From an uncultured Mesonia sp. (GTDB taxonomy: Bacteria; Bacteroidota; Bacteroidia; Flavobacteriales; Flavobacteriaceae): a DNA stretch of 64,000 bases. Positions within the stretch are counted from its first letter, which is position 1. Every line of letters starts with the position of its first letter. The position numbers and the translations under genes were made by a program. Where the stretch lies: positions 181,281 to 245,280 of the forward strand of contig CANLVH010000004.1 in assembly GCA_947494545.1 (NCBI GenBank). Direction: 5' to 3'. Shown in pieces: positions 10,387-56,592 of this stretch. The notes under the pieces are model-generated. The model was not told the DNA's origin. It saw nothing but the letters and a program-made list of their open reading frames with translations, and did no database searches.

Positions 10387-10757
10387 ATGAAAAGTAATTA
10401 TCATTTTAAATTTGAAGAATTAAAAGTATATCAAAAAGCCATTGAATATGGTGAATTGGTTCATTTTCAGATATCCACTTTTCCAAAAATTGAAGATTAT
10501 CGATTGTCGGCACAATTTGGAAGAGCTGCGGATTCGATAGCATTTAACATTGCTGAAGGTTCTGGAAGTTCGGATGCAAGTTTCTTAAATTATTTGAGAA
10601 TTGCGGAGATAGTTCACGTGAATGTGTTGCTTCAACAACCAAAGCTTTATTAAGAAATTATATAACTTTTGAAGAAAGTGAAAAAAATCGAGGCTTATTG
10701 GTTGAAATCAATAAAATGCTCGCAGCCTTAATGAAACATCTAAAAAATAAAAAATAG
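10387..10757 (+). pseudogene. Four-helix-bundle protein gene with a 1-nt deletion frameshift
   Basis: FKFEELKVYQKA...QFGRAADSIAFNIAEGS family start; after ATT GCG GA the second frame continues DSSRECVASTTKALLRNYI...LMKHLKNKK* (shift near 10606). Confidence 0.85.
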
Positions 10758-15987: not shown

Positions 15988-16302
15988 TTGGATAATTGGT
16001 ACATTTATATAATGAGAAATAAGCCGAACGGCCTAATTTATATCGGAGTTACTGATAATTTACAAGAACGAGTAAAAGAGCATAAATTTAAAATGTATCC
16101 AAACTCATTTACTGCAAAGTATAATTGTGACAAATTGGTTTATTTTGAAAAACTTGATAACGGTGCTAAAGCCTCAAGACGTGAGAAACAATTCAAAAAA
16201 TGGAAGAGAGCTTGGAAAATTTCTTTAATTGAAGAGATGAATCCTAATTGGATGGATATTAGCATGAATTGGAAATTTGATTTGAATAAATTTAGAAATT
16301 AG
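15988..16302 (+). CDS. Small GIY-YIG nuclease (YhbQ/UPF0213-like)
   Basis: WYIYIM...LIYIGVTDNLQERVKEH...FTAKYNCDKLVYFE...REKQFKKWKRAWKI.LIEEMNPNW.D. Confidence 0.9.
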   Translation: MDNWYIYIMRNKPNGLIYIGVTDNLQERVKEHKFKMYPNSFTAKYNCDKLVYFEKLDNGAKASRREKQFKKWKRAWKISLIEEMNPNWMDISMNWKFDLNKFRN

Positions 16303-16427
16303 AGTTTTACCTTCTTATAAATTTAGTTTTGGCTGGAACCTGAAATAATCTTTTAGAATAAGAGTCAAACACTTGTTTTAGATAGTTTTGAAATAGAAGT
16401 GTAAAAATCAATCAAAAAAGCAAAAGA

Positions 16428-17759
16428 ATGAGTGAAGATAAGAGATTCCCACGTTCGTGGGAATTTAAACTTCCCAAAATGGGAGAAAGTATTTCTGAAG
16501 GAACCATTATTAACTGGCTGGTAAACGAAGGAGATACCATAGAAAAAGACCAAATTATTGTAGAAGTTGCTACAGACAAAGTAGACTCTGAAGTGCCCGC
16601 CCCGGCAAATGGGAAAATCACGAAAATCTTTGCACAAGCAGATGAAGTAGTGCAAGTAGGGCAGGTAATTGCAAATATCGAAGCTTCCAGTGATCAATCG
16701 GTTAAAACAGATCACGCTTCCGCGGAAGCGAAAAAAGCAACACCTAAACCTTCTAAACCTAAAACACCAAAGAAGAAACCAGTCTCAACTTCGAACTCAC
16801 CTTCAACTTCAAAAACTTATACGCTTAATAAAAATCAGAACACTTACATTTCGCCACTTATTCAGAATATTGCGATAGATTATCACATTAGTTATGAAGA
16901 GTTGGCGCGCATTCCGGCAACGGGACACGACGGGCGTTTGCGCAAAAGCGATGTTTTTAAGTATATTGAAGAAGGCAGACCGGCGCAATTTGCACAACCC
17001 GCACCGGAAGCATCTGGTTTTCAAGTTCCCGATTTAAAATTGGACAAAGGAAAAGGCGAAATCATAGAAATGGACCGTATGCGGCAGATGATTGCCGATC
17101 ATATGGTTTATTCCAAACACACCTCGCCACACGTAACCGCGTATGTAGAAGCAGATTTAACCGAGATGGTAAATTGGCGAAATGCCAATAAAAAAGCTTT
17201 TCAAGATAAATATGGCGAAAAACTTACTTTTACGCCGCTTTTTGTAGAGGCAGTAGCCAAAGCGGTAAAAGATTTTCCCATGATTAATGTAAGCGTTGAC
17301 GGCAAAAATATCATTAAGAAAGAACATATAAATATCGGGATGGCCACGGCATTACCAAGCGGGAATTTAATTGTGCCCGTAGTAAAAAACGCTGACAAAA
17401 AAGATTTAAAAAGCATTGCTGCAGAGGTAAATGTCTTGGCGGAAAAAGCCAGAAATAACAAATTAAAACACGAAGAAACCAGCGGAAGCACGTTTACGAT
17501 TTCTAACGTAGGAACTTTTGGTAGCTTGATGGGAACCCCAATTATCAATCAGCCGGAAGTGGCGATATTAGCAACCGGAATCATCAAAAAACGCGCTGAA
17601 GTGATGGAATATGAAGATGGCGATAAAATTGAAATTAGAAGCATGATGTATCTCTCACTTTCCTTTGATCATCGCGTGGTAGATGGTTTTCTTGGCGGAA
17701 GTTTTTTAAGAAGAGTAGCAGATTATTTTGAAGATTTTAATCAAGAACGGGCTATTTGA
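16428..17759 (+). CDS. 2-oxoacid dehydrogenase E2 (dihydrolipoamide acyltransferase, branched-chain type)
   Basis: Lipoyl motif EVATDKVDSEVP, E3-binding domain, catalytic FDHRVVDG. Confidence 0.92.
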   Translation: MSEDKRFPRSWEFKLPKMGESISEGTIINWLVNEGDTIEKDQIIVEVATDKVDSEVPAPANGKITKIFAQADEVVQVGQVIANIEASSDQSVKTDHASAEAKKATPKPSKPKTPKKKPVSTSNSPSTSKTYTLNKNQNTYISPLIQNIAIDYHISYEELARIPATGHDGRLRKSDVFKYIEEGRPAQFAQPAPEASGFQVPDLKLDKGKGEIIEMDRMRQMIADHMVYSKHTSPHVTAYVEADLTEMVNWRNANKKAFQDKYGEKLTFTPLFVEAVAKAVKDFPMINVSVDGKNIIKKEHINIGMATALPSGNLIVPVVKNADKKDLKSIAAEVNVLAEKARNNKLKHEETSGSTFTISNVGTFGSLMGTPIINQPEVAILATGIIKKRAEVMEYEDGDKIEIRSMMYLSLSFDHRVVDGFLGGSFLRRVADYFEDFNQERAI

Positions 17760-17844
17760 GAAAAGACTTTTTGAAATATGACGATTTGAGACAGGACGAT
17801 TTGAATCAGGAGGTTTTGATACAAGACTTTTGGAGACAGGATTA
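17755..17844 (+). repeat. Six degenerate 15-nt tandem repeats (TTTGAGACAGGACGA-like)
   Basis: Units start at 17755, 17770, 17785, 17800, 17815, 17830; five begin TTTGA and one TTGGA. Confidence 0.9.
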
Positions 17845-17856
17845 AAGTAAAATTTG

Positions 17857-18222
17857 ATGAGACGACATAATTTTAAAAAACTACAAATTTGGAAAGAAGC
17901 GATGGATTTGATAGATGAAAATTATCTTTTCACTTCTACATTACCAGATTATGAAAGATATGGACTGAGAACTCAAATGAATCGTTGTTCTGTATCTATT
18001 GCTTCTAATATCTCGGAAGGTTCCAGTAAACGAACTGATAAACATTTTGTAAAATATTTAGAAGATAGCTTAGGTTCTGCCTATGAATGGGAAACGCAAT
18101 TAGTAGTTTGTTTCCGTCAAGATTTTCTTTCCGAAGATGTTTATTTAAGTTTAGAAAGTAAAGTGCAAAAAGTACAAAGTAAAATCTCGAATTTTATCGA
18201 CAGACTTGATTCCAATAACTAA
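17857..18222 (+). CDS. Four-helix-bundle protein (23S rRNA IVS-like family)
   Basis: HNFKKLQIWKEAMDL...ERYGLRTQMNRCSVSIASNISEGS.....F...L..SLGSAYE.ETQL. Confidence 0.92.
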   Translation: MRRHNFKKLQIWKEAMDLIDENYLFTSTLPDYERYGLRTQMNRCSVSIASNISEGSSKRTDKHFVKYLEDSLGSAYEWETQLVVCFRQDFLSEDVYLSLESKVQKVQSKISNFIDRLDSNN

Positions 18223-18224
18223 AT

Positions 18225-18258
18225 AGTCGTGGTTCAAAACGTCCTGATTCTTGATTCT
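18225..18258. repeat. Right arm of the inverted repeat, plus TTGATTC heptamer
   Basis: 18225-18250 is the reverse complement of 17803-17828 at 22/26 positions. Confidence 0.85.
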
Positions 18259-18271
18259 AAAATATATAAAT

Positions 18272-20383
18272 ATGAGTAATAAAATAAAAAAAGATATACT
18301 AAAAAAAGCCTTCTCTAACCTGTGTACCGCGAAAGCCTTAACAGAGTTATACGAAGAGAATTTTAAAACCGTATCTAAATATGTGCACGCCACTTCCCGT
18401 GGACATGAAGTGATTCAAATGGCTGTGGGAATGCAGCTTTTGCCGCAAGATTATGTTTTTCCGTATTATCGGGACGATTCGATTTTGCTTTCTATCGGGA
18501 TGCAACCAAAAGATTTGATGTTGCAAGTGCTGGCAAAAAAAGACGATCCGTTTTCTGGCGGGCGCACCTATTATTCGCATCCCAGTCTAAAAGATGCCGA
18601 TAAACCTAAGATTCCGCACCAGAGTTCTGCTACGGGAATGCAAGCCATTCCGGCTACAGGCGTTGCTTTAGGGTTTCATTACCGTGAAGGAGGCGATTTA
18701 TTTACGGAAGATGAAAAATACGCGTTTTATAAAGAAATGGGGCAAGAAGAAGCTTTGGTGAATGGCGAGAAACCAGTTGTGGTTTGTTCGTTAGGAGACG
18801 CCAGTGTTACCGAAGGGGAAATAGCAGAAGCTTTTCAAATGGCTGCGCTTAAAAAATTACCTATTTTATATGTGGTGCAAGATAACGGCTGGGATATTTC
18901 TGCTAACGAAGCCGAAACTCGTGCTCAAAATGCCGCAGAATATGCACAAGGTTTTAAAGGTCTAGAAGCCGTTTCTATAGACGGAACCAATTTTGAAGAA
19001 AGTTATACCACGGTTCAAAATGCGTTAAAAACCATCCGTAAAGAAAGAAAACCAATGTTGATTCACGCTAAAGTTCCGTTGTTGAATCACCATACTTCTG
19101 GCGTGCGAATGGAATTTTATCGTGATGATTTAGAGGAAGCAAAAACCCACGATCCGTATCCGAAAATGAAAGACTATTTGTCTAAAAATAACTTTACGGA
19201 AGACGAAATAGAAGCTATTGAAGTTTTAGCAAAAGCCAAAGTAAAAGAACACTACCAAGAAGCCTTAACTGCCGAAGACCCCAAACCGGAAGATTTATTT
19301 ACCCACGATTTCGCGCCAACATCAATTACCGAAGAAAAAGGAGAACGCTCTCCAGAAGGTGCCGAAAAAGTGGTCATGGTAGATTGCGCTTTGTTTGCTA
19401 TCGAAGAATTGATGAAAAAACACAAAGAATGCCTGTTGTACGGTCAAGATGTTGGCGGTAGATTGGGTGGAGTTTTTAGAGAAGCGGCAACTTTAGCTCA
19501 AAAATTTGGCGACAACCGCGTGTTTAATACGCCTATTCAAGAAGCTTTTATTATTGGTTCTACCGTTGGGATGTCTGCGGTTGGTCTAAAACCCATCGTA
19601 GAAGTGCAATTTGCAGATTATATCTGGCCTGGACTTAACCAGTTGTTTACGGAAGTGAGCCGAAGTTGTTATTTGTCTAACGGCAAATGGCCGGTTTCTA
19701 TGGTATTGCGCGTTCCTATTGGCGCTTACGGTAGCGGCGGACCTTACCATTCTTCTTCGGTAGAAAGTGTGGTAACCAATATTCGCGGACTTAAAATTGC
19801 GTACCCGAGCAACGGAGCCGATTTAAAAGGTTTGATGAAAGCCGCTTATTACGACCCGAATCCGGTGGTGATTTTTGAACATAAAGGTTTATATTGGAGC
19901 AAAGTGCCCGGGACAAAAGGCGCAACTTCGGTAGAACCGAGTGAAGATTATGTGTTGCCGTTTGGAAAAGCTTGGGTTTTGCAAGAAATCTGGAAGCAAG
20001 AAGATAAAGAGACCTTGAGTATTGTTACTTACGGAATGGGCGTACATTGGGCGATGAACGCTTCTGCGGAATTAGGTCTGCAAGATCAAATAGAAGTAGT
20101 AGATTTACGAACTTTACATCCACTTGATGAGGAGACCATAATGAAATCTGTAAAGAAATGCGGCAAATGTTTGGTAGTAACCGAAGAACCATCAGATAAT
20201 ACCTTTGCAAGAGCTTTGTCGGGTAAAATTCAAGAAGAATGTTTTAAAACTTTAGACGCTCCGGTCATGACAATTGGTTCAGAAAATATGCCGGCCATTC
20301 CGTTAAATTCAACCTTAGAAGAAACGATGATTCCTTCTACGGAAAAAGTAAAAGCGAAGATTGAGGAGTTGTTGAGGTATTAG
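18272..20383 (+). CDS. 2-oxoisovalerate dehydrogenase E1, fused alpha+beta subunits
   Basis: TPP-binding GDASVTEG...DNGW in the alpha part; GQDVGG..GGVFR, FNTPIQE, EVQFADY in the beta part. Confidence 0.92.
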   Translation: MSNKIKKDILKKAFSNLCTAKALTELYEENFKTVSKYVHATSRGHEVIQMAVGMQLLPQDYVFPYYRDDSILLSIGMQPKDLMLQVLAKKDDPFSGGRTYYSHPSLKDADKPKIPHQSSATGMQAIPATGVALGFHYREGGDLFTEDEKYAFYKEMGQEEALVNGEKPVVVCSLGDASVTEGEIAEAFQMAALKKLPILYVVQDNGWDISANEAETRAQNAAEYAQGFKGLEAVSIDGTNFEESYTTVQNALKTIRKERKPMLIHAKVPLLNHHTSGVRMEFYRDDLEEAKTHDPYPKMKDYLSKNNFTEDEIEAIEVLAKAKVKEHYQEALTAEDPKPEDLFTHDFAPTSITEEKGERSPEGAEKVVMVDCALFAIEELMKKHKECLLYGQDVGGRLGGVFREAATLAQKFGDNRVFNTPIQEAFIIGSTVGMSAVGLKPIVEVQFADYIWPGLNQLFTEVSRSCYLSNGKWPVSMVLRVPIGAYGSGGPYHSSSVESVVTNIRGLKIAYPSNGADLKGLMKAAYYDPNPVVIFEHKGLYWSKVPGTKGATSVEPSEDYVLPFGKAWVLQEIWKQEDKETLSIVTYGMGVHWAMNASAELGLQDQIEVVDLRTLHPLDEETIMKSVKKCGKCLVVTEEPSDNTFARALSGKIQEECFKTLDAPVMTIGSENMPAIPLNSTLEETMIPSTEKVKAKIEELLRY

Positions 20384-55547: not shown

Positions 55548-55635
55548 GCTCGGGTGGTGGAATTGGTAGACACGTTGGACTTAAAATCCAATGGCCATTA
55601 TGGCCGTACGGGTTCAAGTCCCGTCCCGAGTACCA
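55548..55635 (+). tRNA. tRNA-Leu (TAA)
   Basis: GCTCGGG/CCCGAGT acceptor, TTGGA-CT-TAA-AA-TCCAA anticodon arm, long variable arm, encoded CCA. Confidence 0.97.
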
Positions 55636-55637
55636 AA

Positions 55638-55672
55638 GACCCTCTTAATCTTTTGATTTTGAGGGTTTTTTT
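55638..55672 (+). terminator. tRNA terminator hairpin, repeated in each cassette (also near 56035 and 56431)
   Basis: ACCCTC...GAGGGTTTTTTT. Confidence 0.75.
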
Positions 55673-55707
55673 GTTTTTATGTATTTTGTTTTAATCAATT
55701 AGCAATT

Positions 55708-56007
55708 ATGGCTGCGGTTTATATTCTTTATTCTGCTTCTATTGACTCTTTTTATGTTGGGAGTTGCGAAGATTTTGATAGTCGTTTATCGCAACATTTA
55801 AATGGTGATTTCAAAAAGGCATTTACTAAAAGAGCGAAAGATTGGCAGAAATTTCTTCTTCTTGAAAATCTAGAATATGCCCAGTCACGACAAATTGAGG
55901 CGCACATTAAGAAAATGAAATCGACTAAATATATTGCCAATCTCAAAATGTATGAAGAAATGATACAGAAATTAATAGAGAGATTCAAAACGGGTTCATC
56001 CCGATAG
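55708..56007 (+). CDS. Small GIY-YIG nuclease, copy 1
   Basis: VYILYS...FYVGSCEDFDSRLSQH...FTKRAKDW...IEAHIKKMKS. Confidence 0.9.
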   Translation: MAAVYILYSASIDSFYVGSCEDFDSRLSQHLNGDFKKAFTKRAKDWQKFLLLENLEYAQSRQIEAHIKKMKSTKYIANLKMYEEMIQKLIERFKTGSSR

Positions 56008-56016
56008 CTATCGGGA
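55999..56016. repeat. Perfect 18-bp palindrome TCCCGATAGCTATCGGGA inserted in the tRNA-derived T-arm (second copy 56395-56412)
   Basis: Replaces AGT of ACGGGTTCA-AGT-CCCG; contains the nuclease stop codon TAG. Confidence 0.95.
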
Positions 56017-56103
56017 CCCGTCCCGAGTACCAAAGATCCTCTTAATCTTTTGATTTTGAGGGTTTTTTGTTTTTATGTATTTTGTTTTAATCAATTAGCA
56101 AGT

Positions 56104-56403
56104 ATGGCTGTGGTTTATATTCTTTATTCTGCTTCTATTAACTCCTTTTATGTTGGAAGTTGCGAAGATTTTGATAGTCGTTTATCGCAACATTTAAATG
56201 GTGATTTCAAAAAGGCATTTACTAAAAGAGCGAAAGATTGGCAGAAATTTCTTCTTCTTGAAAATCTAGAATATGCCCAGTCACGACAAATTGAGGCGCA
56301 CATTAAGAAAATGAAATCGACTAAATATATTGCCAATCTCAAAATGTATGAAGAAATGAGACAGAAATTAATAGAGAGATTCAAAACGGGTTCATCCCGA
56401 TAG
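56104..56403 (+). CDS. Small GIY-YIG nuclease, copy 2
   Basis: 99 aa, differs from copy 1 at 3 residues (A3V, D13N, I86R); ATG at 56104. Confidence 0.9.
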   Translation: MAVVYILYSASINSFYVGSCEDFDSRLSQHLNGDFKKAFTKRAKDWQKFLLLENLEYAQSRQIEAHIKKMKSTKYIANLKMYEEMRQKLIERFKTGSSR

Positions 56404-56592
56404 CTATCGGGACCCGTCCCGAGTACCAAAACCCTCTTAATCTTTGATTTTGAGGGTTTTTTGTTTGTAAAATGATTTTGTTTTACTGAAATCATCTAAA
56501 ATTCCTCCCTACTTCCTACAGAAAAAATCAACAACGTCATCTTTTGGCGCTGTCGCTTTTTAGTTTTGTTTTCTAACCAAAAAACTAAAGAG

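Follow-up and report, generated by a model that had tools for sequence, protein, structure and literature searches.

What is a gene of the '23S rRNA intervening sequence protein' family doing between two enzyme genes of a metabolic operon, and why is it framed there by short tandem repeats? We addressed this question in a window of 64,000 nucleotides from an uncultured Mesonia sp. (Flavobacteriaceae; GenBank assembly GCA_947494545.1, contig CANLVH010000004.1, positions 181,281 to 245,280 of the forward strand), in which the gene for a small four-helix-bundle protein separates E2 from E1 in an operon for a 2-oxoacid dehydrogenase. Judged from the sequence and its relatives, the segment 17754-18257 of this window is an intervening-sequence-type cassette, that is, a PF05635 gene held between complementary arms of phased 15-nt units. 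We give roughly an even chance to a mechanism in which RNase III cuts the arms once they have paired within the transcript of the operon, with the repeats changing in number by slippage. The main and serious rival to this proposal reads the arms as protein-binding sites.

All parts of the locus lie on the forward strand. The upstream gene (16428..17759) encodes a 443-aa E2 acyltransferase with Pfam lipoyl, E3-binding and 2-oxoacid_dh domains, and its final four codons together with the stop form the outermost repeat unit. Six 15-nt units with the approximate consensus nTTTGArACAGGACn make up the leader array (17754..17843), the first of which, ATTTGAGAAAAGACT, includes the E2 stop codon (TGA, 17757-17759). 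The array ends 13 nt before the ATG of the four-helix gene at 17857 (a TTG lies at 17854), and direct reading of the sequence gives AAAGTAAAATTTG for the A-rich spacer in between (17844..17856); an A-rich spacer of 9-14 nt is kept among the Mesonia orthologues. The four-helix gene itself (17857..18222, 121 aa, S23p and Avd-like) was assigned through PF05635 and TIGR02436. Pairing and register counts define the trailer arm (18222..18257), which consists of GTCGTGGTTCAAAAC (18226-18240) and GTCCTGATTCTTGAT (18241-18255), each a 15-nt unit that is complementary to that of the leader, and then TC; its terminus reads CTGATTC TTGATTC and stands 15 nt before the ATG of the downstream gene. The latter (18272..20383) encodes a fused E1 alpha/beta subunit of 703 aa with Pfam E1_dh, Transket_pyr and Transketolase_C domains. 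An earlier sequence-only reading of this DNA had described six 15-nt units that begin in the E2 stop codon and run to just before the open reading frame, as well as a TTGATTC-type heptamer ahead of E1, and our coordinates agree with this description.

The periodicity of the leader was evident from three analyses. Tandem Repeats Finder reported arrays of period 15 and 30 at 17754-17841, a repeat search returned five or six copies spaced by exactly 15 nt from 17753/17754, and the autocorrelation of the leader reached 0.71 at a lag of 15 and 0.70 at a lag of 30, as compared with 0.15-0.38 at other lags. The units are only about 70% alike among themselves. With both strands counted, the genome has 19 occurrences of the arm motif TTTGA..CA.GA[CT], as compared with an expectation of 20.7, and the sole cluster is the present locus. 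A dispersed repeat family of the REP/REPIN, NTS or Xanthomonas-type heptamer kind was ruled out on this ground, the motif not being multi-copy genome-wide. Rfam gave no match, and hence no known RNA family, within 17600-18400, and neither a transposase gene in the cassette nor a flanking direct duplication was seen at the locus.

The two arms match each other far better than chance would have it. An exact Watson-Crick count of 17803-17828 against 18225-18250 yielded 22 of 26 pairs, the same figure that had been claimed before, and the extended arms, of which the 5' one corresponds to leader units 4-5 (17803..17831, with 18222-18250 opposite), are 29 nt long and 83% complementary. The leader-trailer duplex was predicted at -34.8 kcal/mol, with z scores of -4.1 and -4.8 relative to dinucleotide shuffles of either arm; shuffles as good as the native duplex arose in 1/1000 and 0/1000 cases, respectively. 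Sliding one arm along the other revealed five ungapped registers at offsets that are exact multiples of 15 nt, with 17-22 Watson-Crick pairs out of 26, whereas all other offsets gave 13 or fewer. The earlier suggestion of a stem that can loop out the open reading frame in alternative registers is thus borne out as far as pairing capacity goes. Moreover, the trailer length appears constrained, with 49-50 nt between the four-helix stop and the E1 ATG in 10 of 26 orthologous junctions.

The period of the array has a simple coding counterpart, which the earlier reading had not touched upon: 15 nt correspond to five codons. Read in the E2 frame, the array spells ERAI, EKTF, NMTI, DRTI and IRRF, each followed by a stop, and then YKTFG. 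A leader unit takes the form x-[K/R]-T-[F/I]-stop, and E2 has a tail of this type (DRTI, NRKY or KPTF before the stop) where the junction is empty. The C-terminus of the present E2, ..FNQERAI followed by the stop, is likewise of the native type found in those genomes. From this likeness, the outermost unit is the native E2 tail, and the further units each re-create this tail along with an in-frame stop. Because each 15-nt unit does so, a change in unit number never damages E2; a 7-nt array running across the coding end could not give such protection.

How did the leader come to have six units? Across genera, the ancestral or base state comprises two leader and two trailer units at 15-nt spacing, and the leader is expanded only in some Mesonia, namely to six units here, eight in the closest relative (L011), ten in M. 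profundi (L069) and six in M. ostreae (L072); the full range over relatives is one to about ten. Comparison with the array of L011 showed that the innermost units are common to both, with differences at the outer end and internally. This pattern points to slippage or unequal exchange within a tandem array, not to stepwise addition at one end, and the extra leader units are, on these alignments, best explained in this way. Changes of this sort would be tolerated, since any leader unit could pair with the trailer and E2 would remain unharmed. The symmetric two-plus-two ancestor, the few expansions within Mesonia, the internal changes in L011 and the limited similarity of the units (about 70%) all speak against the iterative templated copying that the sequence-only reading had proposed as the origin of the repeats. 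A broader form of the idea, in which leader arrays are generally seeded from the tail of the upstream gene, was also rejected, with a mean z of 0.13 over 109 cassettes; the likeness is confined to the E2-E1 family.

We then reconstructed the history of the junction from 25 relatives, to which protein orthologues from named genomes were added, and checked the families of the junction inserts by family search. At 67-90% protein identity, an orthologous cassette is found between E2 and E1 in five genera or more: it is present in Mesonia, Psychroflexus, Aequorivita, Ulvibacter and Patiriisocius, in Winogradskyella luteola and in several metagenome-assembled genomes. Empty junctions exist as well, with gaps of -4, 25 and 30 nt between E2 and E1 (L031, L025 and L021), and L023 holds a junction remnant with an internal deletion. 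In L011 (about 1000-1500), a GIY-YIG gene bracketed by the inverted repeats TTTGTCATACTGAAC ... GTCAAGCCCAGAATGACAAA cuts the four-helix open reading frame after codon 11 and thereby destroys it, while the eight-unit leader and the trailer of the old cassette are still there. Two other Mesonia (L015 and L018) carry, in place of the four-helix gene, a PF13366 gene of the PD-(D/E)XK ('GxxExxY') type with inverted arms of its own (CACGCAAAG... / ...CTTTGCGTG), upstream of which the former leader persists as one or two 15-nt units. As old units remain beside these PF13366 cassettes, the junction has been serially re-used by hairpin-flanked cassettes. Another PF05635 lineage, unrelated to the first and flanked by AT-rich sequences that are complementary, is present in L027-L029, L024 retains a solo stem, and L030 and L032 have a branched-chain aminotransferase gene at this position.

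In a host tree based on segments of E2 and E1, the junctions without the cassette fall for the most part inside clades that carry it, which argues for an old insertion that was repeatedly lost or overwritten; the empty L031, the solo stem of L024, and L026 fall outside these clades. The claim of an inserted element thus stands, in that empty, remnant and replaced states are found among relatives, and the comparison across strains that had been proposed as its check turned up gaps of -4, 25 and 30 nt, remnants, replacements and one to about ten units, not identical junctions throughout. The cassette is an ancient resident, however, and not a recent insertion, a point that goes beyond the earlier reading, as does the five-codon unit that re-encodes the E2 tail and stop. 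Two further observations concern sequences at the same junction. MITE-like (miniature inverted-repeat transposable element-like) hairpins occur there in L019 and L020, and in L019, L020 and L030, which are without the cassette, such a hairpin (GTCACCCTGAACTTGATTCAGGGT ... GCTGAATCAAGTTCAGCATGAC) directly follows the E2 stop. In Aequorivita and relatives (L077-L086 and L096), both cassette arms contain an extra nested hairpin-like sequence, CACGACCGTTCGCT..GCTCACTGCACGAA.CACGAC, sometimes in multiple copies, which may be a secondary small insert within the arms.

The protein encoded by the cassette is firmly placed. It matches PF05635 over profile positions 1-105 of 106 with an E value of 3.3e-31 (108.1 bits, cut-off 33.8) and TIGR02436, 'four helix bundle protein', with an E value of 4.2e-29 (100.9 bits, cut-off 24). 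Its nearest solved homologues, 2GSC (E value 3e-17) and 2RLD, were each deposited with five chains, and a four-helix fold and a homopentameric assembly of the 121-aa protein are suggested by this homology. It has no nuclease motif, and the PADLOC defence models gave no match. The four-helix gene has a pairwise ratio of nonsynonymous to synonymous divergence (dN/dS) of 0.094 among orthologues; the corresponding values are 0.047 for the segment of E2 and 0.083 for that of E1. Moreover, dN of the four-helix gene correlated with that of the host genes (rho 0.50-0.57, as compared with 0.64 between E1 and E2). By these measures, the gene is a long-resident, vertically inherited and functional one, not a decaying recent insert, and purifying selection argues that its protein does something.

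Related cassettes recur in this genome and its genus. The present genome has nine PF05635 matches, some of them broken, and three of them lie in the window; over 19 genomes of the genus, copy numbers range from 0 to 11, with many copies broken. Almost all full-length copies are squeezed in where one gene ends and the next one on the same strand starts. The flanks usually consist of 7-8 nt repeats, and sometimes of 15-nt repeats, whose motif is lineage-specific and complementary between the upstream and the downstream side. Both additional four-helix genes of the window, at about 1-238 and 10388-10757, have heptamer-type complementary flanks. The sequence-only reading had set a 15-nt period here against a 7-nt period at the other loci, with an identical layout; the heptamer flanks and the shared layout were confirmed at these two loci, and the one correction is that the trailer of the E2-E1 cassette is also periodic at 15 nt. 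An unbiased scan of the flanks of 2884 open reading frames in this genome placed four-helix genes at ranks 2, 6 (the E2-E1 cassette) and 12, and a GIY-YIG gene at rank 4. Across nine protein-cluster representatives of the genus, cognate leader-trailer duplexes averaged -28.4 kcal/mol, as compared with -17.5 kcal/mol for non-cognate combinations (permutation p < 1e-5). In one of the remaining copies of this genome (L006/L008, C1:406710-407318), the four-helix gene is split by an inserted GIY-YIG nuclease gene, and its outer flanks show GAGTAAT-type heptamers upstream and complementary units downstream.

To whom does the arm motif belong, the element or the target? The protein lineage of the E2-E1 cassette reappears at other junctions and in other genera at 53-74% identity (L090, L092, L093, L095, L097 and L099-L101), again with TTTGA..CA.GAC-type leaders and GTC.TG / TCTTGATTC trailers. 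One such junction lies between fatty-acid oxidation genes, the first ending ..KGKPLRN before its stop and the second starting MKTAYIVKAY (MKTAYIVKAYRTA). This junction is a second hot spot, at which at least five unrelated arm motifs occur in different four-helix cassettes (L001, L045, L046, L051, L052, L057, L059, L062-L065, L090, L092 and L097). As the lineage keeps its motif across junctions and one junction hosts many motifs, the motif is a property of the element, not of its target. Gene and arms, as compared across these loci, behave as one unit, the arms travelling with the gene; movement of the lineage to other junctions we infer over long time scales only.

These findings can be joined into a mechanism. 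The cassette would have no promoter of its own and would be transcribed together with E2 and E1. In the operon transcript, the trailer would pair with leader units over about 26-30 bp, and the resulting imperfect stem would loop out the open reading frame. Both start codons, that of the four-helix gene and that of E1, would stay clear of the helix, and the A-rich spacer (17844..17856) would come to lie in the loop beside the four-helix start. RNase III would then cut the stem, as it does for the homologous 23S rRNA intervening sequences, and thereby separate the E2, four-helix and E1 messages. The genome has an rnc gene for RNase III. Two matches to TAnnTTTG, which we take to be the Bacteroidota-type -7 promoter consensus, were picked up by a pattern scan upstream of E2 at 16324 and 16383 (16324..16390, forward strand), with no further match within 16000-18400, and are candidate promoters of the E2/four-helix/E1 transcript. 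Within the cassette, no promoter-like or terminator-like site was found, although the sigma-70 scan is ill-suited to Bacteroidota. A search of public sequencing runs for the present strain gave no RNA run that contains it, the best share of its sequence words being 0.19, in runs of DNA or of unknown type. We also consulted four sediment metatranscriptomes, which contain 6% of the sequence words and yielded, apart from unrelated pieces of E2 paralogues, one contig of 265 nt. It is 97% identical to a Mesonia relative, has a depth of 2 and covers the E2 end, the leader and the start of the four-helix open reading frame without a break, showing the contiguity of these three parts and providing weak evidence of co-transcription. 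Complementarily, in-register pairing among the E2-E1 orthologues amounted to 72%, as compared with 26-47% when one partner was slid by 1-8 nt.

Several results weigh against a stem in the transcript. The arm helix is broken by mismatches of 1-2 nt in every unit. In motif-anchored alignments of 30+30 nt from the E2-E1 orthologues, the conserved pairs are invariant and the variable positions do not covary, and no compensatory changes appeared. Cognate arms of these orthologues formed 21.7 pairs out of 30 and non-cognate arms 22.2, and their duplex energies differed marginally at best (p = 0.057). The mismatches in 37 armed cassettes comprised 19 of the G-U type and 25 of the A-C type, hence without the excess of wobble pairs that would be expected if selection acted on the sense RNA. 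Finally, two cassettes (L053 and L061) have long arrays in the same orientation on both sides, with ACCAGTn repeated about 12 times and ATAACAAG about nine times, and show no stem.

Much of this is what one would expect if the arms were phased protein-binding sites, most plausibly for the cassette's own pentameric four-helix protein, on RNA or DNA. Complementarity would then follow from the same site being inverted, and the protein would autoregulate its cassette or mark or protect its ends, with RNase III processing of no importance to the design. Invariant cores (TTTGA, CA and GAC) split by non-covarying positions resemble a pattern of contacts and non-contacts, the units keep a strict phase at variable copy number (of 15 nt here and of 7-8 nt for other lineages), and the direct arrays of L053 and L061 pose no difficulty for binding. 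The motif follows the protein lineage over junctions down to about 53% protein identity, homologue structures were deposited with five chains, and in diversity-generating retroelements structured RNA is the substrate of a homologue, the pentameric and positively charged Avd (bioRxiv 10.1101/2023.10.23.563531). Yet a single cluster (single linkage, 55% identity) carries unrelated motifs, so that recognition would have to change very fast; the arm motif is found nowhere else in the genome, and the complementarity is in register just as a stem predicts. We regard this reading as possible, though clearly second to transcript pairing, and it is between an RNA stem and arrays of protein sites that the mechanism is to be sought.

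The other explanations fare less well. The arms could be terminal inverted repeats acting at the DNA level, as a hairpin or cruciform, of a non-autonomous mobile cassette whose enzyme is encoded elsewhere, with the RNA stem as a by-product. The 0 to 11 family copies per genome within one genus, many of them broken, fit this picture, as do the presence of one gene-plus-arm lineage at several junctions, the missing wobble excess and the re-use of the junction by PD-(D/E)XK, GIY-YIG and MITE-like inserts that likewise end in inverted repeats. We consider it unlikely nonetheless, as no transposase, target-site duplication or recent movement was seen, the E2-E1 copy is vertically inherited over several genera at a dN/dS of 0.09, and the sampled copies sit between the end and start of co-stranded genes, which suggests a constraint at the transcript level. 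It is also rather improbable that the cassette has no function as such and is an ordinary small operon gene whose spacers happen to hold slippage-prone, low-complexity repeats. Long vertical residence, strong purifying selection on the protein and arms without covariation would suit such a gene; complementarity that is far above chance and lineage-specific, the same architecture around most members of the genus and in the homologous rRNA intervening sequences (PMC4990558), and the conserved trailer length of 49-50 nt would not. Very improbable, in our estimate, is the addition of one unit after another by templated copying at the outer end of the element, which would create the registers. Unit numbers do vary among close relatives (2, 6, 8 and 10), and the outermost unit does overlap the E2 tail. 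Against this, the L011 array differs internally as well as at its end while the inner units are shared, units about 70% alike are not recent copies, the similarity between upstream tail and leader is not general among the 109 cassettes, and the only reverse transcriptase of the genome is of the retron type and lies on a different contig.

The closest known counterparts of the cassette are the intervening sequences of 23S rRNA. That of Coxiella burnetii spans 428 nt, holds an S23p open reading frame and has a 28-bp terminal stem that is cleaved by RNase III, and Leptospira has likewise such a sequence (PMC4990558). The E2-E1 cassette shares the PF05635 protein, a similar size (about 500 nt), an open reading frame inside complementary ends, the sense orientation within a longer transcript and a sporadic presence among relatives. 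In contrast, its host is the spacer of an mRNA operon, from the E2 stop at 17759 to the E1 start at 18272, and not helix 9, 25 or 45 of 23S rRNA. Its arms are made of phased 15-nt units that vary in copy number, the outermost of which overlaps a coding tail and stop. Whereas RNase III cleavage has been demonstrated for the rRNA elements (PMC4990558), it is predicted for the present cassette, and the protein is under clear purifying selection here, whereas the authors of the Coxiella study suggest that S23p is not made. By open reading frame, stem and size, the cassette thus resembles an intervening sequence, and by location it does not; we conclude that it is a relative of these elements and not a member in the strict sense.

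A second relative is Avd, with a homologous four-helix-bundle fold and pentameric assembly, which acts on RNA with complementary segments around a template (PMC10053308; bioRxiv 10.1101/2023.10.23.563531). In contrast to Avd genes of diversity-generating retroelements, none of the nine copies in this genome adjoins a reverse transcriptase or a pair of template and variable repeats. An Avd role of this kind was excluded, since the single RVT_1 gene of the genome is of the retron type and lies on contig C9, which has no PF05635 match. This gene (L149, C9:23424-24026) encodes a 402-aa retron-type reverse transcriptase, which PADLOC matched best to retron types XI, XII and I-C. It is followed by a gene for a protein of 277 aa without a family match, and the two probably form a defence retron that is unlinked to the cassettes.

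Short-period repeats are also known from the GGGAATC units of Xanthomonas and the heptanucleotide repeats of Geobacter, which form inverted intergenic pairs without an enclosed gene (PMC4692102, PMC2700814). Convergent pairs of short-period units between co-oriented genes, with unit numbers that vary among related genomes, are common to both cases. However, one motif is dispersed there in tens to hundreds of copies per genome, whereas here it is private to the locus, has a period of 15 nt and encloses a gene. A small gene framed by structured repeats is, in turn, a feature of the REP/RAYT and NTS/GIY-YIG Ssn systems (PMC11893778), and in some relatives a GIY-YIG or PD-(D/E)XK nuclease gene occupies the E2-E1 junction within its own inverted repeats. 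The four-helix protein differs from them in having no nuclease motif, and its repeats are not dispersed.

To our knowledge, rRNA intervening sequences and S23p have been known for thirty years without an explanation of their function or mode of spread, and our literature search found no paper on PF05635 genes with repeat arms in operon spacers. To this background, the present locus adds a metabolic operon of the ordinary kind as a home for the gene-in-a-stem design of rRNA intervening sequences, and a 15-nt unit that is phased with the codons and has sequence in common with the tail of its host gene. At a single junction, moreover, cultivable marine flavobacteria of several genera present alleles that range from filled and expanded to degraded, replaced and empty. 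Purifying selection on the protein has been quantified, and the comparison of loci indicates that the arms move along with the gene. Processing of the stem, if it takes place, would allow the guest gene to sit in the operon with no disturbance to it and might also determine the ratio of E2 to E1. If, instead, the protein reads the repeats, the Avd/S23p family would gain a general role in nucleic-acid recognition beyond diversity-generating retroelements. More speculatively, PF05635 proteins and phased-repeat arms could be one self-contained system that colonises transcribed junctions, rRNA helices and operon spacers alike. The pentamer would then read its own arms as RNA or DNA, and the arms would neutralise the insertion in the transcript and define the moving unit, with the arm here rebuilt on a five-codon period from the tail of its host, so that element and host gene have sequence in common; we propose this only tentatively.

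Two minor observations complete the description of the surroundings. The host operon probably encodes a 2-oxoacid dehydrogenase of the branched-chain type; in L030 and L032, which belong to two other genera, the gene between E2 and E1 encodes a branched-chain amino-acid aminotransferase-like protein of 364 aa, and this supports a role of the complex with branched-chain 2-oxoacids. Elsewhere in the window, 55620-56466 comprises 2.1 copies, 97% identical, of a 396-nt unit that contains an open reading frame start, MAAVYILYSAS..., that looks GIY-YIG-like by eye.

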